The notes beneath the pieces were generated by a model. It saw only the letters and a program-made list of their open reading frames with translations. It had not been told where the DNA came from and ran no database searches. A DNA stretch of 64,000 nucleotides from a virus. Within the stretch, counting starts at the first letter, position 1, and each line of letters starts with the position of its first letter. Below are positions 3,001 to 62,373 of the stretch, one piece after another. The DNA is taken from positions 28,439 through 92,438 of the IMG/VR virus record IMGVR_UViG_3300048598_000530, one strand, 5' to 3'. Made by a program: the position numbers and the translations under genes.

Positions 3001-4236
3001 AACATAATCTTCATCAGTAAATGCTACGACAACAAACATCCCATTACCATAACACACAGTTTGCCAACCTGCAATAAAAGATGATGTAAGTGGAGTTATA
3101 GCTGTCCATGTAATACCATCAGAAGAATACATAAATGAATTACTATAAGTATTGTTTGCTACAGCAACAAAAACACCATTTCCATAACACACAGAAGACC
3201 AAGCATTATTATTAGGACTTGTTCTAATTGTCCAAGTGACACCATCAGGAGATGTCATTATTCTATTATTTGTCCCTGACCTTGCAACTGCAACAAACAA
3301 GCCATTTCCATAACACACACATTGCCAATCATTGTCAGCTGCACTAGCTCTAATTGTCCAGTTGATACCATCAGGAGATGTCATCACACGATTTCCAGTT
3401 CCACTCCATGCAACAGCAACAAATAATCCATTACCATAACAAATTCCAAGCCAATTATTATTTGCTGGTGCTATTCTAGTGGTCCAATTGATACCATCAG
3501 GTGATGTCATTATTCTATCGCCAGTTCCACTCCATGCAACAGCAACAAATAGACCATTACCAAAACACACACAAGTCCAAGATTGATCTGATGGTGTAGA
3601 TCTATACGTCCAATTAACACCATCAGGGGATGTCATTACAGAAGTATTTGTTTCACTAGCAGATAATGCTACGAAAGTGCCATTCCCATAACAAACACTC
3701 ATCATCATCTCATTATAAGTGCTTGATGATATTGACCAAGATTCTCCAGCTGCAGGTTGAACAATACCTGATTTTCCTGTAGCTCCTATATATCGGTAAC
3801 CAGTTATTTTAAAAGGTTTAGCAAAAGCAGATGTAGAACCGTTAAAAGTTAATATACCAGTTTGATAATCAAAAATCCAAGATGATGCGTCTGTAGGGAA
3901 TATCTCTGTGTTATTATTTTGAAAAAGTCTTATTTTATATGCTGTACCATATTTATCGCTTATCCAGTTTTTAAGACGAACACCACCGCTATAAGCATAA
4001 TAACATTGTTGATTTGCAACAGAAGTGTCTTCAGTTAAAGTAAAAAGCGTATAATCTTGAGCTACATTCATTTTTGTAGCTTCAAAGGGAGTAGGGTCAA
4101 TATTATCTGTCCACACTTCATTAATATTAATGTTTACAGTATTATCACCAATCTCTTCATAAAACCCTTTAGTGCTACTTGTTGTTCTTTTATTAATCAA
4201 CGTCTTAAAAGATCGATCTTCTTTTGACCAAGCCAC
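1..4236 (-). CDS. Large virion fibre/receptor-binding-like protein with tandem beta-propeller modules (partial, runs off the left edge)
   Basis: Absent from the ORF track because no stop lies in the window. GTG start at 4236 after AAGGAG. Frame checked at both ends and at internal points (MAWSKEDRSFKTLINK...WTSVCYGNGVFVAV...PITSISYGEGIFVATAAYQT). Product inferred from the repeats and the structural-gene context. Confidence 0.75.
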   Translation of the reverse strand, partial: MAWSKEDRSFKTLINKRTTSSTKGFYEEIGDNTVNININEVWTDNIDPTPFEATKMNVAQDYTLFTLTEDTSVANQQCYYAYSGGVRLKNWISDKYGTAYKIRLFQNNNTEIFPTDASSWIFDYQTGILTFNGSTSAFAKPFKITGYRYIGATGKSGIVQPAAGESWSISSSTYNEMMMSVCYGNGTFVALSASETNTSVMTSPDGVNWTYRSTPSDQSWTCVCFGNGLFVAVAWSGTGDRIMTSPDGINWTTRIAPANNNWLGICYGNGLFVAVAWSGTGNRVMTSPDGINWTIRASAADNDWQCVCYGNGLFVAVARSGTNNRIMTSPDGVTWTIRTSPNNNAWSSVCYGNGVFVAVANNTYSNSFMYSSDGITWTAITPLTSSFIAGWQTVCYGNGMFVVVAFTDEDYVVMISNDGVTWTLKTQLLQGYWTSVCYGNGVFVAVEYMGRIMTSGRIIEMYEQEQHSHRFINNEVTITNDLYVSGVSTNAGVTWTKRSAASNNAWFGVCYGNGLFVSVSVSGSNNQVMTSPDGINWTSRTPAIDTAWIAVCYGNGLFVAVSPGSVMTSPDGITWTSRVPASSNGWVSVCYGNGLFVAVAQTGTNNRVMTSPDGITWTSRTSAADNSWWGLCYGNGLFVAVSAEGSVMTSPDGITWTSRTPASPNQWLSVCYAKGLFVAVSATGTNNSVMTSPDGITWTSRYTPVDNYWTCVCYGKGLFVAVAQLSSGGKCDGVMTSPDGITWTIRYLREYNTWRSVCYGNGLFVAVASSGAYSPVMTSGDLEEAYEQEKHTHKFVNNDVKMFGNLEVAGVDIISGINWESKTSAADNNWSSVCYGKDLFVAVATSGSLNRIMTSHDGCTWYTRNNILDNNYIAVCYGDGLYVALANTGATNRVITSSDGVTWYVKNATNNNNWSSVCYGNGLFVAVASGNGSNNRVMTSPDGNNWSARVSAANNSWTSICYGDGLFVAVSNSGTGNRVMTSPDGFTWTIRTSAIDNNWTSVCYGNGLFVAVADTGTNNRVMTSPDGITWTSRTSALNNNWKSVCYGNGLFIAISNTGTNDRVMTSSDGIVWSIKTSATNDWSSICYGNGSFIAVANSGTGNRVMSSGFSIDKSNSSINQYNGLHYFTDSVDLNTQESSSPGSVIVKEEGSNILKSVPASYFGISADTTIGTTWTTRTPNQLLSLVRCCYGNGMFVALASSGNVLLTSPDGVNWTSRNITGDDFWGGICYGNGLFVAVSTNGVNDRVLTSSDGINWTRRAASDNTLGWVTVSYGNGIFVAAAYDTPGNRFMTSHDGVSWTSLIPPVDNSPSTSCFGNNTFVIVCVDGRVFLSSSGTSWTTVAPPVPSLSIFGVCYGNGKFVMAGGVQIGSDPSLLTSSDGVNWSVQTVPFTQPITSISYGEGIFVATAAYQT
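30..3760 (-). repeat. 27 copies of a ~42-aa coding repeat (W-x-SRT...W-x-x-VCYGNGLFVAV...RVMTSPDGxxW) in blocks of 7+7+7+6
   Basis: Counted CYG/CFG/CYA cores (ccataaca-like on +) at ~3688-2921 (7), 2702-1958 (7), 1730-973 (7) and 665-38 (6), separated by non-repeat linkers. Confidence 0.85.
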
Positions 4237-8533: not shown

Positions 8534-9202
8534 TTATTTTTCCTGTGAAGTTGTTTCAACTTTCTTACGTCTTTTTGCTCTTTTTTCAATTTCTTGATTT
8601 ATCTCGACTTTAGCTTCTTGCTTCTTTTCATCGAAATTAGGAGTAGATAGTTGTGAATTATCAGCACCCAAATCTTTTGCAAGATCAGCTACAACATCTT
8701 TTTTTTCAGCAACTACAACTACAGTTTCTTTCTCTTTAACTTGTACTGGACTTTTTAAAATTTCATCAGAACCTTTAGTTGTAATATCAGCCTGTCTTTC
8801 CCTCATTCGTCTCTCAGCTTCATTAAAATTAGGAATTGAAGGCTTGTCTTCATCTTTCTGTTTTTGCATTGGAGACTTCCTAAAGTTTCTTGCAGTCTGT
8901 CTAGACTCTAAACTTTTATTCATCTCCTTTGCATCAACACATGCTTTACTTGGGAGAGCTTTTTTCATTGCAATAGAAACGATTTTTTTATCTTCACTAC
9001 ACGTTTGAGGTGTCGAAATATTTTGTGATGCTTCTTCCTCTGTCACTTCTAACATCCATTTTGCTTTTAAACCAGCTTTAATAGATCTAGAAGTATCGCA
9101 CACGTGAACATCGTAATAGAAATACTCGTCAGTTTGAATCTTTCTATTTTGATCAGTTAGTCTAAAGCCACCAAGTCTATTGCACTTGAAAAAACGATAC
9201 AT
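8534..9202 (-). CDS. Hypothetical charged protein
   Basis: 222-aa ORF with GGAG RBS. Confidence 0.55.
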   Translation of the reverse strand: MYRFFKCNRLGGFRLTDQNRKIQTDEYFYYDVHVCDTSRSIKAGLKAKWMLEVTEEEASQNISTPQTCSEDKKIVSIAMKKALPSKACVDAKEMNKSLESRQTARNFRKSPMQKQKDEDKPSIPNFNEAERRMRERQADITTKGSDEILKSPVQVKEKETVVVVAEKKDVVADLAKDLGADNSQLSTPNFDEKKQEAKVEINQEIEKRAKRRKKVETTSQEK

Positions 9203-28053: not shown

Positions 28054-28473
28054 TTAATTTATATGTTTATGAATCTGAATTACACGCTCTTGACCTAATG
28101 CTTTTTCTTTTGTGGGATGTCTACCCAATAATCTATCTTCATCATGTGTATATAAACACCATTGTTGCTCAGAATCAGGTCTTTCATCTTTATCTTTTTT
28201 AGGACATCTTTTAATTATTGCTATTTTGCTAGAACTATCTATAGCATCACTATTCGTATTCAATCTAGAAACCAATTGACTTATAAAGGATGTCAAATCT
28301 AGATAACTCGCGTTTTCTCTAAGTTTGAACTGTTTGATTAGTTCCTTAGACAGTTTTTTCTTTTTATAAAGAATTTCAGCATTTTGCTCTAACATGTCTT
28401 TGCCATTTTGAGCGTAATCGCGTCTTTCTTTTAAAGGTTCTAAGATTTGTGCAATAATTTTCTCTGTATTCAT
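28054..28473 (-). CDS. Hypothetical protein
   Basis: 139-aa ORF; C-terminal WCLY...LLGRHPTKEKA. Confidence 0.55.
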   Translation of the reverse strand: MNTEKIIAQILEPLKERRDYAQNGKDMLEQNAEILYKKKKLSKELIKQFKLRENASYLDLTSFISQLVSRLNTNSDAIDSSSKIAIIKRCPKKDKDERPDSEQQWCLYTHDEDRLLGRHPTKEKALGQERVIQIHKHIN

Positions 28474-52139: not shown

Positions 52140-52221
52140 TAGGAACGGCGGGATTTGAACCCACATTTACAACATACCAGTTACGATTATCCACCTTATA
52201 AGAGTGGCTCGGTACATTCCT
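52140..52221 (-). tRNA. Non-canonical tRNA-Ile(UAU)-like RNA (D-loop-like element 3' of the anticodon arm)
   Basis: AGGAATG/CGTTCCT acceptor, GTGGG-TTCAAAT-CCCGC T-arm, CCACT-CTTATAA-GGTGG anticodon arm, no D-arm at the normal position. Confidence 0.7.
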
Positions 52222-54862: not shown

Positions 54863-55951
54863 TTATAATAATCTATTAGTTTTGATTATTTTGTAAAGAA
54901 TTTCGACAAATTCTGTATCAAATTCAATAGATCTTCCTTCAAATAAAACTTGTAAAGCAAATTCTATACTTTGTGCTTTTCTATAGGGTCTGTTTGAGAC
55001 TAAAGAATCGAATGTGTCAGCAACAGCAAGAATTCTTGCACCTGTAGGTATTGCTTTTTCTTTTAGTTTATGCGGATAACCTTTTCCATTCCATCTTTCA
55101 TGATGATGTAAAACATAGTCGCTGATCTTACCTACATTATCGACAGGTTTAATTATTTTATAAGACAGTTCAGAGTGTTTTTTGATTAATTCGTATTCTT
55201 CATCTGTAAGTTTGTCTTTTTTAAAAAGAATCTCGTCTTTAACACCAATTTTGCCTATATCATGTAAACGTCCAGCTATAGCAACGTCTTCAATAAATGC
55301 TTCATCATCAGTGTATTCTAAACAAATTTTCTCAGAAAGTTCGCCGACTTTTTCAGAATGATTTTTTGTATACTCATCTCTTTGTTCTAAAGCATTTGTT
55401 AAAGAAGTAAGCGTATTGAAAAAAATCTTATCTCTTTCTTTTTGAATTACAACAATTTTTGCTCTTAAATTCTCAGCTAAATGTGAATTTCTTCTTAAAT
55501 TTTTTGTGTTTCTAGAAGCTTGTAACAATAATAAACCCAATGTTGTTAATTGAAAAGGTTTATTTAAGAATGCATATATATTCTTTTTTATAATTGTTGT
55601 GATAAATTCATCTGTATTAAAACCTGTCATTAAAATAATAGTAAGCTCTGGATCGATTTTATTAGCTTCATCTACAAAATCAAAACCTGTACACCCATCA
55701 TCAAGAAAAATGTCGCAAATAACTACATCAAACTGGTGACTTTCTACAAGGTTTATAGCTTTAGTTAGATTTTCAGCTGTAAAACAATATCCACCATGAT
55801 TTTCTATAAAAGTTTTAAGAAGATCAAGTTGTATATTATCATCATCAACAACAAGAACTGTCAAGTTCATTAAAATAGATGTGTGTTGTATATCTATAAT
55901 GTTCATTATTTTACCTTTAAACTTGACAATGCATATTGAATCAAAATACAC
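54863..55951 (-). CDS. Response regulator receiver fused to an HD-GYP cyclic-dinucleotide phosphodiesterase
   Basis: REC motifs VLVVDDD, VICDIFL, NKP; HD-GYP motifs YTKNHS, LHDIGKIG, HHERWNGKGYP, AVADTFD, RPYRKA. Confidence 0.92.
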   Translation of the reverse strand: MYFDSICIVKFKGKIMNIIDIQHTSILMNLTVLVVDDDNIQLDLLKTFIENHGGYCFTAENLTKAINLVESHQFDVVICDIFLDDGCTGFDFVDEANKIDPELTIILMTGFNTDEFITTIIKKNIYAFLNKPFQLTTLGLLLLQASRNTKNLRRNSHLAENLRAKIVVIQKERDKIFFNTLTSLTNALEQRDEYTKNHSEKVGELSEKICLEYTDDEAFIEDVAIAGRLHDIGKIGVKDEILFKKDKLTDEEYELIKKHSELSYKIIKPVDNVGKISDYVLHHHERWNGKGYPHKLKEKAIPTGARILAVADTFDSLVSNRPYRKAQSIEFALQVLFEGRSIEFDTEFVEILYKIIKTNRLL

Positions 55952-56054
55952 TTATACCCTTGTTTATATTATACCAACGCGTATTAAAAATAATGACAAC
56001 AAAAAAAATTTTTAAAAAAAATATCACTTTTGCTAACTTTGATATATATTTCTC

Positions 56055-56200
56055 TAGAACAATGCTCTTTTAACAGTGATTGCTTACATTACTTTATAGC
56101 TCAGTTGGTTAGAGCGACCGCCTTAAAAGCAGTAAGTCTCAGGTTCGAATCCTGAAAAAGTAGCCAAAATCTAGCATTTACAACTCAGAGTATTGTTCTA
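56055..56200 (+). ncRNA. Y-RNA-like cassette 1: conserved scaffold enclosing a full tRNA-like cloverleaf (56090-56166, UAA loop, CCA)
   Basis: Closing stem TAGAACAATGCTC/GAGTATTGTTCTA; motifs TTTAAC..TGCTTACA and TAGCA..AACTC. Confidence 0.75.
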
Positions 56201-56222
56201 ATTTTAATAACATGAAAATTAT

Positions 56223-56375
56223 TAAAACTGCTCTTTAACAACAGGTGCTTACACATGGTTTAAGTTAGTCCGAAAGACTAATGAAGACGTTCGAATCGTC
56301 TATTCCCCGTTAAGGAAATTTAAGTTTCTTTAACGGGGAATAAAAAGTTCAGCACGTGAAACTCGAGCAGTTTTA
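56223..56375 (+). ncRNA. Y-RNA-like cassette 2: scaffold enclosing a short hairpin, a T-arm and a 17-bp acceptor-like hairpin
   Basis: Closing stem TAAAACTGCTC/GAGCAGTTTTA; AGACG-TTCGAAT-CGTCT T-arm. Confidence 0.75.
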
Positions 56376-56389
56376 TTTTTTGAAATAAT

Positions 56390-56520
56390 CAAGTGTTCTT
56401 TAACTTTAAATGCTTACATGCTTTTTAGCTCAATGGTCGAGCAATTATTTGGGTATAATGGGTTCTTGGTTCAAGTCCAAGGGAAGCGACAAAAAATAGC
56501 ATTTTGAACTCGAACACTTG
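56390..56520 (+). ncRNA. Y-RNA-like cassette 3: scaffold enclosing a degenerate tRNA-Pro-like cloverleaf
   Basis: Closing stem CAAGTGTTC/GAACACTTG; GCTC/GAGC D-arm; CTTGG-TTCAAGT-CCAAG T-arm. Confidence 0.75.
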
Positions 56521-56537
56521 TTTTTTATAAAGGAAAT

Positions 56538-56688
56538 AAAGTCGTGTCTTTTAACGCTGAAAGCATACATTTTTTTCGTCAGTTCAAATCTGACTATCTC
56601 CTCGGTGAGGGGATATGGCCGAGCGGTTTAAGGCAACCAACTGCTAATTGGAACACAAAAATAGCTCTCAAAACTCAGACATGACTTT
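56538..56688 (+). ncRNA. Y-RNA-like cassette 4: scaffold enclosing a circularly permuted tRNA-Ser(GCU)-like module
   Basis: Closing stem AAAGTCGTGTC/GACATGACTTT; arm order T-arm, closed acceptor, D-arm, anticodon arm. Confidence 0.75.
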
Positions 56689-56717
56689 TTAGTTAAATAG
56701 TTTGGTGGTAAGTTAAA

Positions 56718-56743
56718 GGGGCTCAGTTAAAGAGCCCCTTTTT
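56718..56743 (+). terminator. Intrinsic terminator ending the ncRNA array
   Basis: GGGGCTC-AGTTAAA-GAGCCCC-TTTTT. Confidence 0.9.
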
Positions 56744-56818
56744 GTTTAAATTTTATTTTGTATCTTGTAATTAAAAAACTATAGAAATAAAACATAATTC
56801 TAATGAAAGGAATGAACT

Positions 56819-57073
56819 ATGTCAATTATCCATGTAGCATACGGTGGAAGAAATGAAGATCTTGAGTTTGACGATGTATTTCGTGAAGACAGACTTCATT
56901 CTCTGGGTATGACGACAAAACCTTTGTCACAATCAACAAATCCCGAAACAGTGAAGCGTGCACTTGCAATTCACTATGATGTAAGTTATGACGAGTTTGA
57001 CTCGCATTTTGTTGAAGTCAATCCAAACGGGAACATTACAGTACGTCCCAATGCAAAATGGGGAAGAGGCTAA
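56819..57073 (+). CDS. Putative ubiquitin-like (beta-grasp) modifier
   Basis: 84 aa ending ...NGNITVRPNAKWGRG*; first gene of an operon with E1, JAB and E2-like genes. Fold is inferred. Confidence 0.55.
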   Translation: MSIIHVAYGGRNEDLEFDDVFREDRLHSLGMTTKPLSQSTNPETVKRALAIHYDVSYDEFDSHFVEVNPNGNITVRPNAKWGRG

Positions 57074-57074
57074 A

Positions 57075-58625
57075 ATGGCAACAACACAAAAAACAGAAGA
57101 AGATGTACGTGTTAAAATCTTGAATTCGTTTATGACATGTCCTCATAGAGACACAAACGAATTAAAGGTTATACATGCTGAAATGAGAGAAAAAGATCCT
57201 GTTTTTTACGCACATCTTGCTGCATGGTATAAAAAGAATGGTGAACTTCGTGATCATAACGAAGTTTTTACTGCAATGCTTTTAACAGATCCTTATTTAC
57301 AGAACCGTGAAACAGGTATTGCTCTTTTTCAACAGCAAGCTCCCTTTATGAAAGCAAAAATTATTGGTTTCATAAAAGGTAAAAAAATTATTCTAAGAGA
57401 GAAAACAGGTAAGAAAACTCAACGAGGAAAGAAACTCGTCGATGACATTAAAAACACTGAGAAAAAAGTAGGTCTTGAAAAATCAATTCCAGGTCTTTTG
57501 AAAACAGAGATCACAAAATATCTCAGATGGCTTGAAGCTGATAATGAACGTTTTGATACTGTCGCCTTGAAAAATTTTAAAGAGTTAAAATCTCTTTATG
57601 CAGGAAAGGGCACACAAGTAAAACCAAGTCCAAGAGCGCAAGCTATTCTTTTTGATGAAAAAATTCCTGAAGATAGTAAGCTTTCTGTTTTCAAAAAAAT
57701 AACTAATGCAAAGACTCCTGAAGAGGCTGCACTTCTTATTGTTGAAAATAAAATACCTTACACTATCGCGATAGGTTTAATTGAAAAAATTACGCCTTCA
57801 ATTCTTATTGCTTTAGTTAATAGTATGTCATCACAGGAAATTATTAACAACATTGCATCTTTACAAGAAAAAGGAGCAATGGACAATCCTGGTCTGAAGA
57901 AACTCATCACAGATAAACTTGAGACAGCAAAAACTGCAAAAAATGTTACAGCTCTAAAATCAAAAAGAGCAAAAGCAACAGGAAGAGTTACTGATGAAGC
58001 TGTTGTAAAACAACTCGACGAAATTGCTGACAAACAAATTAAAAAATCAGGAACAATTAAAAGTTCTACAGCAATTCTTGTCGATAAATCAGGTTCTTTA
58101 GCTGTCGCAATTGAAGCAGGAAAACAAATTGCAGCTGCAATTTCAGGTACAATGGAAGCTGATCTTCATGTTATTGCTTATGATACTATTGCTAGATCTA
58201 TTAAAGCAAAAGATAATACTCTTACAGCATGGGAAGAAGCATTTAAACCAATTAAGTCTGATGGAGGAACATCAGCAGGTTGTGCCCTTGAATTTATGTT
58301 GAGATATAAATTGTTTGCTGAACAACTTATTATTGTCACTGATGAAGAAGACAGACATACTCCAAAGTTCTACGACATTTTTCCGAAATATGTTGAAGAA
58401 ATGAAAGTTACTCCACATATTGTTATCGTCAGAGTTGGTAATGTTAATCCTATTTTAAGTACTGAACTTAAAGCAAAAGGAATTGCTTTCGATATTCATG
58501 AGCCTAAAGGAAGTGATTACTATGGAATTCCAGGACTTATTCCTTTGATTTCAAGAAAATCAAAACTTGACTTGGTTTATGAAATTATGGACTTTCCATT
58601 ACCAAAAAGAAAGTCATATGTCTGA
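57075..58625 (+). CDS. TROVE/Ro60-like protein with a C-terminal vWA domain
   Basis: DPVFYAHLAAWY...LRD and MSSQEIINNIASL resemble TROVE helical motifs; MIDAS-like ILVDKSGS...T...VTDEE; probable start MATTQK at 57075. Confidence 0.7.
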   Translation: MATTQKTEEDVRVKILNSFMTCPHRDTNELKVIHAEMREKDPVFYAHLAAWYKKNGELRDHNEVFTAMLLTDPYLQNRETGIALFQQQAPFMKAKIIGFIKGKKIILREKTGKKTQRGKKLVDDIKNTEKKVGLEKSIPGLLKTEITKYLRWLEADNERFDTVALKNFKELKSLYAGKGTQVKPSPRAQAILFDEKIPEDSKLSVFKKITNAKTPEEAALLIVENKIPYTIAIGLIEKITPSILIALVNSMSSQEIINNIASLQEKGAMDNPGLKKLITDKLETAKTAKNVTALKSKRAKATGRVTDEAVVKQLDEIADKQIKKSGTIKSSTAILVDKSGSLAVAIEAGKQIAAAISGTMEADLHVIAYDTIARSIKAKDNTLTAWEEAFKPIKSDGGTSAGCALEFMLRYKLFAEQLIIVTDEEDRHTPKFYDIFPKYVEEMKVTPHIVIVRVGNVNPILSTELKAKGIAFDIHEPKGSDYYGIPGLIPLISRKSKLDLVYEIMDFPLPKRKSYV

Positions 58626-59463
58626 TGTTTTAAATCTAATCAAACAAATGGGAGAGAAAGAAGCAGCAATGAGCAATTTTATCTCTCCCGTTTTTTTCAA
58701 TGAATTTGTTACTACAAAACTTGATGGTGTAGTTTACAAATTCAAAATTTCACAAAAAACTCCTGGTTGGTATAAAGTAAAGCCAATCAACACAAAACAA
58801 GCAAAAACTGTTTGTAATGCTGAACTTCACGAAATTGATGATTACTTAAAAAGACTTGCAAAAATTCGTTTGATTTTTGTAATGAGAAAAGATAATGTTT
58901 TTTTAGCTATACCTGAAAAAAACAATAATCTAAATCTTCCTATAGATCAATTAATCTCTGTTTTTTTATTTGATGATACTGTTCTTGATTTTGACAAAGT
59001 TATTTGTCGTTTTGATGGTGCAAATTTTTGGTATCATCAAAACGATCCTTCAAGCGATCCTTCAAAATCTATGTATTTGAGAGAGCAATTACATAAAGTA
59101 ACTGACCCTAAAAAAATTACTTTTCTGGGTTTAACAACAGAAGAAAAAATTGCTTATACTTTAAGAGTAACTATAGACAAAAGTCTTATTATTGATAGAA
59201 AAAAAGAATCATTAAAAAATGATGTTGAACATGCAGGTGGTAAATTCATAGATTTTATAGAAAAAAATGATCATTTTAGCGTGACATATACTGTAGATGG
59301 TGATTCATACACAAGCAATGTAAGTAAAAACGAAACACACAGCGTAATAACAGCAGGAATTTGTTTGTCTGGTGAAGATAGAAAATACGATTTAAAAAGT
59401 TTGATTACCGTAATGAGAGAGGGTCAACGTGAGCGGAGAATTTATAGAACACATAACGTTTAA
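58618..59463 (+). CDS. Putative prokaryotic E2-like conjugating protein
   Basis: C-terminal alpha/beta domain with AGICLSGED, resembling the UBC catalytic GxICL; operon position between TROVE and JAB. Confidence 0.45.
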   Translation: MSDVLNLIKQMGEKEAAMSNFISPVFFNEFVTTKLDGVVYKFKISQKTPGWYKVKPINTKQAKTVCNAELHEIDDYLKRLAKIRLIFVMRKDNVFLAIPEKNNNLNLPIDQLISVFLFDDTVLDFDKVICRFDGANFWYHQNDPSSDPSKSMYLREQLHKVTDPKKITFLGLTTEEKIAYTLRVTIDKSLIIDRKKESLKNDVEHAGGKFIDFIEKNDHFSVTYTVDGDSYTSNVSKNETHSVITAGICLSGEDRKYDLKSLITVMREGQRERRIYRTHNV

Positions 59464-59845
59464 AGAACGTTGTTGGATTGTTTATGGTTTTTGGATTGGT
59501 CCTTTTGTCATAGGTAGATTGAAATATCTTTCTGAAGGAGAAACTTGTTCAGTAAATTTTGATTGGCAAAAAGGTCTTTCAAAATATGTTCTTGGCTGGT
59601 TTCATACACATCCAGAAAGTGTTTCTCTTAGTCCAAGCAACGAAGATATAAAAACTATGAAATCTTGGGTTAGAACTTTAGAACGACCTTTGATTTGTGG
59701 CATCATGTATGACAATAAAAAACTGAAGAGAGACTTTCTTTGGAGAAATTGTTATTTGTTTAAACGTTGGCCCGATAAAAAAATTTACTATCAACCAATT
59801 ATGAAAGATAAGCTTTTTAAAAACTTCTACATCGGAAAATTATGA
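59429..59845 (+). CDS. JAB/MPN metallopeptidase (deconjugase)
   Basis: E...GWFHTHP...SPSNED (HxH-x7-S-x2-D). Confidence 0.85.
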   Translation: MSGEFIEHITFKERCWIVYGFWIGPFVIGRLKYLSEGETCSVNFDWQKGLSKYVLGWFHTHPESVSLSPSNEDIKTMKSWVRTLERPLICGIMYDNKKLKRDFLWRNCYLFKRWPDKKIYYQPIMKDKLFKNFYIGKL

Positions 59846-60477
59846 AAACTTTAAAGCATGAAGAACTTTATAGATCAGCTGATCTAATGACAAAAATGGC
59901 AAATCTTGACATTGTTATGTGTGGAATTGGAGCAATTGGCTCAAATCTTGTCGAGAATCTTGTACGTCAAGGTTTTAAAAAAATCACTGCAATTGATTTT
60001 GATAGAATTGAAGAACATAACAGACATACACAAATCTGGTATGCTCGAGATGTTGGTCAGTTAAAAGCAACAATGCTTAAAAACAGAATATTCGACATAA
60101 TGAATATTCCTATTGAAGTTGTGCCCAAAAAATTAGAAGAAGCAAATTCAAAAAAAATACTCAACACTCAGGGAGTTGTAATTGATGGATTTGACAATGT
60201 TGCAAGTAGAAAATTTGTTACTGAGTATTGCTCTATATACAAAACAAACTGCTTACATATTGGATTATTTAAAGATTATGCTGAAATAATATGGAATGAA
60301 AGATACAGAGTTCCTGACGATACTAAAAATATAGATGTTTGTGAATATCCTTTAGCGAGAAATATCATTTTATTGGCTGTTGCTGTAGCGACAGAGATAT
60401 TAATAACATATTTAGAAAAAAAAGAAAAACAGAACTGCATTATAACATTAAAAGATCTGAAAATCACGAGGATATAA
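59842..60477 (+). CDS. ThiF/E1-like adenylating enzyme
   Basis: CGIGAIGS, IDFDRIEEHN, KA, VIDGFDN, distal Cys (DVCEYP). Confidence 0.9.
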   Translation: MKTLKHEELYRSADLMTKMANLDIVMCGIGAIGSNLVENLVRQGFKKITAIDFDRIEEHNRHTQIWYARDVGQLKATMLKNRIFDIMNIPIEVVPKKLEEANSKKILNTQGVVIDGFDNVASRKFVTEYCSIYKTNCLHIGLFKDYAEIIWNERYRVPDDTKNIDVCEYPLARNIILLAVAVATEILITYLEKKEKQNCIITLKDLKITRI

Positions 60478-60968
60478 TGGAAGAACTTTGGTTTACAATG
60501 CTTATCGGTATCCCAGGTTGTGGCAAAAGCACATATATAAGTCTTCAACCAAAATCAAAATTTGGTAGCATCATTTGTCCTGACTCAATAAGACGATCTC
60601 TCACAGGAGATATTTCAGATCAAAGCCAAAATCAACTTGTTTGGCAGATTGCTCAATATACCACGAAATGGGCGCTTATAAATTTGTTGTCTGTTACTGT
60701 AGATGCAGTCAATACTGATACATATTTAAGAAGAGATTTTTTACAAAAACTGAAAAATTCAGGCGTTTATGGAGGATTTAAAAAGCGTGCAATTGTTTTC
60801 GAAATAGATCCAGATGAAGCAATTAAGCGTGTTGAAAAAAGGTTTAACAGACCTCCTGTACCACCTGAAAGAATCTACAAAATGTACGGAGAGTTTTTAT
60901 ATACAAAAAAAGTCTTACATGAAGAAGAATGGGATTCTATCCAGTTTATAGGAGAAAAAAATGGCTGA
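60477..60968 (+). CDS. AAA_33 / polynucleotide-kinase-like P-loop kinase
   Basis: GIPGCGKST, ICPDSIR, VDAVN, RxxxR lid (AIKRVEKRFNRPPVP). Confidence 0.8.
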   Translation: MEELWFTMLIGIPGCGKSTYISLQPKSKFGSIICPDSIRRSLTGDISDQSQNQLVWQIAQYTTKWALINLLSVTVDAVNTDTYLRRDFLQKLKNSGVYGGFKKRAIVFEIDPDEAIKRVEKRFNRPPVPPERIYKMYGEFLYTKKVLHEEEWDSIQFIGEKNG

Positions 60969-62373
60969 AAAACTCTTAAAATCAAGAAAAGTAGCATCAC
61001 ATCAAAACGACGGTTTTGTAAAAACTTTAAAACATAAAGTTTTGTTTTGTGGAAATCCTGAAGGCAATAATAACAAGTTCTACTCAATAGAGCTTCAAGT
61101 AAATCCCAAAGACGAACATCGTCTTTTTACTCATTATGGCCGTCTCGGAAAAACAGATGTTTATGAAGTTCGTGATGAATATCTTGGGAAGACTCTTGAT
61201 TTTACTACAGCCGATCGTGAATTCGAAGTTATCCTTGCAAGTAAACTCAAAGGAAAGAAAAAAGAAAGTGAACTTGGAGGAACACGCGAAGAAAAATACG
61301 AACTTGTCGAAACATTCGCTCCGACTGTTGGTTCTGTAAACGTCAGAGGAAAAAACGCTATTATCCAAGTCACAACTATTGCAAAAGACGTAGTTAGTTC
61401 ATATTCTGACCCTGAAGTTTCGAGAATCATACGTCAAATCGTCGATGAAAATATACATAATATCTCTTCAATGACTTCTTTGAAACTCACTTCAAACGGA
61501 TTTGAAACACCACTTGGTCCTGTAACTAAAGAGCATGTGCAACGAGCTAGAGAACCTTTAATGGCTCTTAAAAAAATAATGATCAATGACGAAATCAACC
61601 CTGATACACAAATAACACGTGATTATAACGCAAAATATTTCTCTTTGATACCTCATTCTTTCGGTCACAAAATAACTCAAGAAGATTGGATTTTAACTGC
61701 TGCAAAACTTGCTGAAGAACTTGAACTTCTTGACAACCTTGAATCTGCAGTCCAAATGGGTGCTGCTCTACAGAATGCATCAAAACAAAAACAAGCAATT
61801 GGTACAGACATTGAAGTTCTTACTGATTCGGTAGAGTTCAATAGAATTGCAAAATATATTACAGACTCAAAAGCAGGTAACCATAGAGGTTCTGATGTTT
61901 GGAATTGGAAACCCAAAAACATCTATAAAATCAAAATTCCTACAGAACGTACTCGTTATGAAAAAACCGAAAAACAATTTGGCAACAAACATGAACTTTT
62001 TCATGGCTCAAAAAACAGTAACATTTTAAGTATCCTTAAAGGTGGTCTGATTATTCCCGCAGTAAATGCTGGTTTTGTAACAGGTAGAATGTTTGGTGAT
62101 GGCCTTTATTTTGCAAATAACTCAACAAAATCACTGAATTACTCTACAGGATTTTGGGGAGGCAAAGCAAACAAATACACAAATTCTTTTTTGTTTTTAG
62201 CAAATGTTAACATGGGAAAAACATTTGTTTCTCATGATCCAAGATATTCAGGTGCTCCTCATGGCTATGACTCTATTCATGCTCAAAAAGGAAGATCACT
62301 CCATAACGATGAATTTATTGTTTTCAAACTACAACAAGCGACTTTAACATATTTGGTCGAAATGTCAAAATAA
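60961..62373 (+). CDS. WGR-domain poly(ADP-ribose) polymerase-like protein
   Basis: FYSIEL...HYGRLG (WGR), YFSLIPH (regulatory domain), FHGS / GLYFA / NDEF catalytic H-Y-E triad. Confidence 0.9.
   Translation: MAEKLLKSRKVASHQNDGFVKTLKHKVLFCGNPEGNNNKFYSIELQVNPKDEHRLFTHYGRLGKTDVYEVRDEYLGKTLDFTTADREFEVILASKLKGKKKESELGGTREEKYELVETFAPTVGSVNVRGKNAIIQVTTIAKDVVSSYSDPEVSRIIRQIVDENIHNISSMTSLKLTSNGFETPLGPVTKEHVQRAREPLMALKKIMINDEINPDTQITRDYNAKYFSLIPHSFGHKITQEDWILTAAKLAEELELLDNLESAVQMGAALQNASKQKQAIGTDIEVLTDSVEFNRIAKYITDSKAGNHRGSDVWNWKPKNIYKIKIPTERTRYEKTEKQFGNKHELFHGSKNSNILSILKGGLIIPAVNAGFVTGRMFGDGLYFANNSTKSLNYSTGFWGGKANKYTNSFLFLANVNMGKTFVSHDPRYSGAPHGYDSIHAQKGRSLHNDEFIVFKLQQATLTYLVEMSK

Follow-up and report, generated by a model that had tools for sequence, protein, structure and literature searches.

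Small RNAs that mimic tRNA are established companions of Ro60 genes: such Y RNAs flank the gene in bacteria and in some phages (Chen et al. 2014, PMC4201824). The Ro60 protein of phage phiLo binds two upstream Y-like RNAs as well as host PNPase (PMC12135203), and the TROVE proteins of jumbo phages have been noted within RNA-repair gene sets (PMC7824862). Here we describe an array of tRNA-like RNA units beside a Ro60-like gene in the genome of a huge phage, IMG/VR record IMGVR_UViG_3300048598_000530. We analyzed a 64,000-nucleotide (nt) stretch of this record (positions 28,439 to 92,438), which we call the window and whose numbering we use throughout. An initial annotation, made from the letters alone, had proposed that the array represents a new class of Y RNA in which a constant protein-binding handle carries exchangeable tRNA-like cargos. 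We consider it probable that the array consists of four members of an undescribed Y-RNA-like class that partners a divergent Ro60-type protein.

The array occupies 56055-56688 on the plus strand and comprises four tandem units of 131-153 nt, each with its own closing stem, measured in base pairs (bp), and all with a common handle. Its parts and its flanks are as follows.

56026 to 56048, plus strand: upstream element ACTTTTGCTAACTTTGATATATA, a putative promoter; 23 nt, occurring once in the window
56055 to 56200, plus strand: unit 1; 146 nt, closing stem of 13-14 bp, canonical-order tRNA-like head at 56090-56166
56223 to 56375, plus strand: unit 2; 153 nt, closing stem of 11 bp, partial head
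56390 to 56520, plus strand: unit 3; 131 nt, closing stem of 9 bp, tRNA-like head at 56419-56490
56538 to 56688, plus strand: unit 4; 151 nt, closing stem of 12 bp, circularly permuted tRNA-like head
56715 to 56745, plus strand: intrinsic terminator, the only one for the array; hairpin at 56715-56741 with a 10-bp stem containing 6 G-C pairs, then a T-tract

On its 5' side, every unit reads UUUAAC, 3-6 nt, one strand of an inner helix and (U/A)UACA; on its 3' side, the partner strand is followed by 2-5 nt, AACUC and the closing stem. The closing stems are perfect and unrelated in sequence among the four units. Minimum free energy folds of the single units return the same order of closing stem, internal loop, inner helix and head, with z-scores of -2.1 to -6.5. 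The initial annotation had described this layout well. Four tandem units with all of the features it listed are present on the sequence, each with a terminal stem of its own (which we measured at 9-14 bp), and the array is indeed closed by one strong terminator. The inner-helix pairs it gave are also correct; only the fourth (GAAAGC/GCTCTC, in unit 4) contains one A-C mismatch.

The upstream element at 56026-56048 is kept just 5' of the first unit in three relatives (loci L001, L015 and L085 of our collection). It has no canonical sigma-70 match, and it may be the promoter of the array. Because the region lies between this conserved element and one terminator, it appears to be a single transcription unit of ~690 nt. 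No units beyond the four were found in the 119-kb genome record. The array is adjoined by a minus-strand gene (54863-55951) whose product joins a response-regulator receiver to an HD-GYP-type phosphodiesterase domain, in a position that is kept in L015 and L085.

Downstream of the array lies the gene that gives these RNAs their context.

57075 to 58625, plus strand: 516-residue Ro60-fold protein; predicted TROVE-like helical ring plus a vWA domain with a DxSxS motif of the MIDAS (an adhesion site that depends on a metal ion)

Searches of Pfam (at E up to 10), NCBIfam and PHROGs gave the 516-residue protein no match. An AlphaFold2 model, however, has a mean confidence score (pLDDT) of 83.8, and when this model was compared with the PDB by Foldseek, the top 13 matches were all Ro60/Rsr structures (E 4.5e-12 to 3.5e-9, template-modeling [TM] score ~0.6, 520-580 aligned columns). 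A profile built from 29 homologues weakly matched the Ro60 encoded by Thermus phage phiLo (E 0.037), and the search of the PDB by sequence was otherwise blank. The vWA MIDAS residues D337, S339 and S341 are invariant in those 29 homologues. We conclude that, at the level of predicted fold, this is a divergent Ro60-type protein. The label "TROVE/Ro60-like" used by the initial annotation is right at that level because the predicted structure matches full-length Ro60/Rsr, but the TROVE domain cannot be read from sequence profiles. The stated distance of 330 nt also holds, counted from the end of the terminator to the start of the reading frame at 57075, although the intervening gene for an 84-residue protein had been passed over. 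More than 400 homologues of the protein exist; they are mostly unnamed, and many are encoded on viral-classed contigs of 130-470 kb. One peculiarity of the model is a long beta-hairpin among the N-terminal ring helices (residues 103-132, encoded at 57378-57470).

How do these RNAs compare with the known Y RNAs? They resemble YrlA in several ways: they are small RNAs beside a Ro60-fold gene, a setting in which several copies per locus occur; their 5' and 3' ends pair into a loop-interrupted stem; and their distal module mimics tRNA. Unit 4 even shares the YrlA arm order of T-arm, acceptor-like hairpin and D-arm, whereas units 1-3 have canonical-order or partial heads. The differences are equally plain. 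The YrlA/Yrl motif GNCGAAN0-1G (CGAA; PMC4201824, PMC12135203) is absent from all of the handles, which read C-UUUAAC-N-helix-UACA, so the earlier impression that the motif here is unlike the Ro60-binding consensus was accurate. In its place is another handle, with a UYUAAC/RACUY loop, a GC inner helix and UACA. The heads fall into several classes, among them entire tRNAs that have CCA and an intact anticodon arm, and arrays reach 6-7 units, apparently under one promoter and one terminator. The neighboring protein has diverged too far to be matched by the Pfam TROVE model, and its operon has genes for a ubiquitin-like protein, an E1 and a JAB peptidase in place of RtcB/RtcA.

The phiLo system (phiRo60 with Yrl1 and Yrl2; PMC12135203; PDB 9KOP, 9L5Y) is similar in that a phage Ro60 has Y-like RNA genes directly upstream, and phiRo60 combines a good fold match with the only, and weak (E 0.037), sequence-profile link to any solved structure. 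The phiLo RNAs were found through the CGAA motif and no tRNA-like heads have been described for them, whereas here there are four units with tRNA-derived heads. With the metazoan Ro60-Y RNA particle (PDB 1YVP and others), the array shares a TROVE-plus-vWA ring and a terminal stem with a loop or bulge as the presumed dock. However, Rfam detected no likeness to the GGUCCGA bulged helix, and the pyrimidine-rich loops of metazoan Y RNAs contrast with tRNA mimics and operon clustering here.

The initial annotation had recommended comparison with the Rfam Y RNA and YrlA families. We searched 55700-57000 at E up to 10, and tRNA was the sole matching family; across 14 related loci, Rfam returned only tRNA-type, tmRNA or intron matches and no Y RNA family, although the Rfam entry that corresponds to YrlA was not separately confirmed. 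This outcome supports a separate family. We therefore place the RNAs with the Ro60/Y RNA systems on account of their common architecture and genomic habit, but not with YrlA, since they lack the CGAA motif, match no curated model, have a handle of their own and carry several head classes. Our literature search found no paper describing this system or any Ro60-type protein linked to a ubiquitin-like activation module.

The case for a genuine RNA family rests on the handle. In it, the upper end of the closing stem leads into an asymmetric internal loop (5' UYUAAC / 3' RACUY), which is followed by an inner helix of 8-9 bp built around a G-C/C-G core and then by a UACA junction. L001, the closest relative beyond the window's own lineage (74% protein identity), has four matching units in the same order. 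More distant loci hold 1-6 units by a strict structural scanner, and 7 were found in L003 by a looser scan; the 5' loops of distant loci vary (UCUAAC, AUUAC, UUACA, CCAACGG and UCUCAC), and the 3' motif is RACUY. Run on 99 non-redundant loci plus the window, the scanner found 175 units compared with 13 per shuffle. Outside the window, 162 of its 170 units lie upstream of the Ro60-like gene, at a median distance of 978 nt, and 137 of these 162 are on the strand of the gene. One apparent fifth unit in L015 (962-1081) was rejected as a scanner false positive, as the near-identical window sequence scores nothing with the covariance model R2 described below.

Since the scanner presupposes UACA and RACUY, we ran a second, motif-free test. 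From an alignment of 16 units with short heads, all taken from other loci, RNAalifold returned the closing stem together with an inner helix of 5+4 bp. The covariance model R2 was built from this alignment and thus contains no sequence from the window or its close relatives. (It replaced, together with a broader model, R3, an earlier model R1 of whole units with tRNA heads, which also matched ordinary tRNAs.) Across the whole window, R2 matched units 3, 1 and 2 only. When R2 was run unfiltered over 50-60 kb, its best four matches were the four units (unit 3, 35.8 bits; unit 1, 21.4; unit 4, 15.7; unit 2, 15.1); the next match scored 7.7 bits, and ordinary tRNAs were unmatched. The covariance-model search near homologous genes that the initial annotation had called for thus finds the scaffold there: over 100 homologous loci (691,517 bases), R2 gave 119 full-length matches at E <= 0.01. 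All those that were located against the gene positions lie upstream of the Ro60-like gene, whose strand is shared by 115 of the matches. Unrelated viral contigs totaling 697,368 bases gave R2 no match at E <= 1. These control contigs had been collected by the pattern CTTTAAC-N3-9-GCTTACAT; the pattern occurs singly in them, none of its occurrences is a unit by R2, and we took them to be chance matches.

R3 was built from the matches of R2 and was used on bacterial genomes, with 150 first-look candidates scored per genome. In the whole ~9-Mb genome of Dictyobacter alpinus, it found 2 units, both directly upstream of the gene, and in a whole ~8-Mb Chloroflexia genome, it found 3 units, all directly upstream of the gene; neither genome had any other match. 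A third bacterial genome, whose units are more diverged, gave no match with R3.

Base pairing in the handle is maintained by compensating change. Among 108 distinct R2-matched units, 85.5% of alignment cells pair, compared with 58.1% in shuffles and 32-42% with slid partners, though the alignment was fitted to the structure of the model and hence favors that structure. In the same units, 16 of the 17 handle pairs show changes on both sides, and the covariation score is 0.729 versus 0.227, a value reached by 0 of 500 shuffles. The closing stem next to the loop varies in sequence, with 132 different 8-mers among the 162 distinct units of the scanner, and closing stems within one locus have near-random likeness. 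The handle loops behave differently. Within a locus, even across head classes, they differ at 3.6 of 13 positions; between loci, with head class equal, they differ at 6.6 of 13, and 0 of 1000 label shuffles matched the within-locus likeness. Such uniformity fits a shared reader encoded at the locus, whichever protein that may be. We conclude that the handle, rather than the head, is the constant part of the family. The data support the units as a real, conserved and covarying RNA family tied to a Ro60-fold gene in phages and bacteria, and the idea of a constant scaffold with exchangeable heads is upheld by covariation and head-class counts over more than 100 units. The array can also decay, as it has in L085 (74% protein identity). 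In that locus (3330-3625), only a 3' remnant is left of units 1 and 2, AACAC replaces AACUC in unit 3 and unit 4 is a nearly headless handle.

The heads are far more diverse. The four different cargos that had been read from the sequence (a tRNA with CCA, a T-arm with a long hairpin, a degenerate tRNA and a permuted Ser-like tRNA) were all recovered by ARAGORN, Rfam and folding. The head of unit 1 is a tRNA (Rfam tRNA, 58.6 bits; ARAGORN anticodon UAA) with a 6-bp acceptor stem, a discriminator base and an encoded CCA. Unit 2 has an extra 7-bp hairpin, a T-arm and a hairpin of 17-19 bp, and it has no Rfam tRNA match. The unit 3 head is a tRNA (Rfam, 40.6 bits) whose anticodon loop is defective, at 6 nt, by both ARAGORN and Rfam. 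In unit 4, the order is T-arm, closed acceptor hairpin, D-arm and anticodon arm; ARAGORN calls a tRNA (Ser GCU) only after circular rotation, and the two halves score 22.7 and 19.8 bits with the Rfam tRNA model, under its threshold of 29, which units 1 and 3 pass. Across 174 family units, 47 heads are in canonical order, 44 are circularly permuted (with the YrlA-type arm order and callable by ARAGORN only after rotation) and 83 are of other kinds: a T-arm plus hairpin, two hairpins or very short inserts. The T-arm is the most frequent head element. In 23 of the 29 multi-unit arrays that hold a permuted head, it is transcribed last.

The anticodons are erratic. Of 75 anticodons, 19 begin with A, and among 91 anticodon loops, 16 have the wrong length. 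Unit 1 has UAA here and AUU in L001; unit 4 has GCU here and UCU in L015, where the protein is 99% identical and the handles are essentially unchanged. Indeed, the anticodon loop is the fastest-changing part between close relatives. Standard decoding tRNAs have a 7-nt loop and an anticodon that is kept among close relatives, a pattern that these heads lack. Judged from sequence, then, the heads are not ordinary decoding tRNAs.

Perhaps the heads are decoys or sensors for host defenses that target tRNA, such as anticodon nucleases, with the ring capturing or reporting the cleaved mimic? This idea is compatible with a Y-RNA-like class. It would explain why anticodon loops change fastest, it suits the polynucleotide-kinase-like gene that follows the operon in this clade, and phage RNA-repair modules with TROVE proteins have been discussed (PMC7824862). 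However, fast change fits an absence of constraint equally well, profile scans revealed no RNA ligase in the operon and the kinase, like the PARP gene beside it, is restricted to close relatives. Planctomycetota, Chloroflexota and other bacteria also carry the system in their chromosomes, and for them counter-defense is a less obvious role. We regard the decoy idea as unlikely.

Alternatively, the units might be cassettes for expressing and processing phage tRNAs, in which stem and handle are a maturation signal, the released tRNAs are functional and quality control of the precursor accounts for the link to the gene. RNase III-type processing stems are known to loop out rRNAs and tRNAs from polycistronic precursors, and they are alike in that a long helix formed by the flanks encloses each RNA within a multi-unit transcript. 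The array is polycistronic and therefore needs cleavage, for which the long perfect stems are plausible RNase III substrates. Units 1 and 3 exceed the Rfam tRNA threshold, unit 1 has acceptor stem, discriminator and CCA, and all 47 canonical heads in the family are ARAGORN-callable tRNAs, many followed by CCA. Against this, the 11 ordinary tRNAs of the same genome (at 48.8-53.6 kb) have no handle; about three-quarters of the heads are permuted, partial or unlike tRNA, and one natural unit has no head at all; and anticodon identity differs among near-identical relatives, with many anticodons non-standard. Simple double-strand cleavage also does not need a conserved, locus-uniform internal loop. 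Processing stems lack this loop and the second helix, whereas the enclosing element here is found only beside one protein gene and persists without the enclosed RNA. We therefore give the cassette explanation a small chance. Two observations on neighboring tRNA genes may be added. The ordinary tRNA cluster of the window includes a further handle-less Rfam tRNA match (52140-52221, minus strand; 35.8 bits) that ARAGORN missed, and in L100 (500-2950), a Phycisphaerae contig, ~20 ordinary handle-less tRNA genes lie directly upstream of four handle units and the Ro60-like gene.

Our preferred reading remains a new Y-RNA class with a modular handle, which we judge the best one because it accommodates a conserved family, linkage to a Ro60-fold gene, a constant handle, exchangeable heads, the lack of any Rfam Y RNA or YrlA match and the lack of a Ro60-binding motif. 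Several points weigh against it. The last two of those features cut both ways: the Ro60-contact motifs GNCGAA/CGAA and GGUCCGA are absent, and the Rfam Y RNA families are unmatched. The pair counts carry the bias toward the model structure mentioned above. When sequencing runs were searched as assembled contigs, the only RNA-type run with the exact sequence, which is possibly DNA, contributed two 151-nt contigs at depth 3; these (56121-56270 and 56247-56398) cross unit boundaries, which fits either a precursor or DNA carry-over. Many heads amount to whole tRNAs with CCA, which RNase P and 3' processing could set free. Finally, the binder of the handle could be any of four other proteins that co-occur with it, for example, one with an OB-fold. 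The proposal of the initial annotation stands as to the conserved RNA family, the modular handle and the gene linkage; it needs widening in that the handle's partners also include ubiquitin-like, OB-fold/Cys, JAB and E1 proteins.

These proteins are encoded around the Ro60-like gene, followed by two further genes. Counts refer to 118 fetched loci, many of which are truncated.

56819 to 57073, plus strand: 84-residue protein, candidate ubiquitin-like, with a C-terminal Gly; between the terminator and the Ro60-like reading frame
58618 to 59463, plus strand: ~280-residue protein; OB-fold (oligonucleotide/oligosaccharide-binding) domain plus a C-terminal domain with an invariant Cys (Cys245, in AGICL)
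59429 to 59845, plus strand: JAB/MPN-type peptidase by weak profile matches; 53 of 118 loci
59842 to 60477, plus strand: ThiF/E1-like adenylyltransferase (Pfam ThiF, 1.3e-26); 46 of 118 loci
60477 to 60968, plus strand: polynucleotide-kinase-like P-loop kinase (AAA_33, 5.7e-10; Pnkp, 5.6e-7; phrog_505 polynucleotide kinase, 2.7e-12)
60961 to 62373, plus strand: complete protein with WGR, PARP_reg and PARP catalytic domains by domain profiles

By tblastn, 89 of the loci have the 84-residue protein just upstream of the Ro60-like gene, and 88 have the ~280-residue protein. The former has weak beta-grasp structural neighbors (Prok_Ub, Ufm1 and ubiquitin; TM 0.44-0.52). In the window, L001, L003 and L004, its last residue is Gly (WGRG*, VFG*), or 1-2 residues follow the Gly (WGGH*, VFGK*), which is the pattern expected for a ubiquitin-like protein that is trimmed by a co-encoded JAB peptidase. 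The OB-fold of the ~280-residue protein is of the S1/CSD/IF1 type, with matches of middling strength (Z ~7); as for an E2-like reading of this protein, the fold searches picked up the OB-fold part alone. The kinase and PARP genes overlap the end of the operon and occur in close relatives only, at 4-5 of 118 loci. The combination of a TROVE protein with small RNAs and a PARP is reminiscent of the set of vault components. In L070 (8333-8934), a tmRNA gene (87.4 bits) lies downstream of the operon, its 3' end (8690-8725) overlapping the start of a group I intron match (8690-8934; 99.1 bits).

Ubiquitin-like sulfur carriers deliver tRNA-type modification in the Urm1/Uba4, SAMP/UbaA and TtuB/TtuC systems. 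Might the handle then be read by another product of the operon, with the OB-fold/Cys protein as the best candidate or else the ubiquitin-like/E1 pair, and the RNAs be substrates or scaffolds, for example, for such modification? In phages and bacteria alike, the ubiquitin-like, OB-fold/Cys, JAB and E1 proteins occur together with the Ro60-like gene and therefore with the array; the ~280-residue protein combines an S1/CSD/IF1-type OB-fold with an invariant Cys; and the T-arm is the commonest element of the heads. We nevertheless think this improbable: profile scans detected no PP-loop or other tRNA-thiolation enzyme in the operon, the OB-fold matches are only middling, and Ro60-type proteins are the only members with established binding of adjacently encoded stem-loop RNAs (PMC4201824, PMC12135203).

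Returning to the Y-RNA-like class, co-occurrence and the uniformity of the loops within a locus suggest that the Ro60-like protein binds the handle. We envisage the following sequence of events. A double-strand-specific nuclease would cut the units apart at their closing stems. The handle would then dock on the outer surface of the Ro60-like ring in the manner of Y RNA stems on Ro60, leaving the heads to show tRNA surfaces that would recruit, or compete for, proteins that recognize tRNA. Captured proteins would thereby be coupled to the ring and to the ubiquitin-like/E1/JAB/OB-Cys module. The kinase-like enzyme and PARP appended in this phage clade would point to RNA damage or repair during infection. 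In its strongest form, the proposal is that ring, array of tRNA-shaped RNAs and module are one machine, in which the handle loads the mimics and the ubiquitin-like system acts on the particle or on the captured proteins; this we offer as a doubtful extension.

The role of the tRNA-like domains in bacterial Y RNAs is an open question, and this family is a natural experiment on it: one handle is combined with several tRNA-derived heads, and natural headless and decayed variants exist as well. It spans ~100 phage and bacterial loci, from huge phages to the cultured bacterium Dictyobacter alpinus. The covariance model flags members of this family, including some that pass for tRNA genes in ARAGORN and Rfam. 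For a large protein family, unannotated and with more than 400 members, the array provides a first clue to function, and the gene context ties a Ro60-type protein to a ubiquitin-like activation module. If the one-machine proposal is true, a Ro/Y ribonucleoprotein would be directly coupled to ubiquitin-like conjugation in prokaryotes and their viruses.

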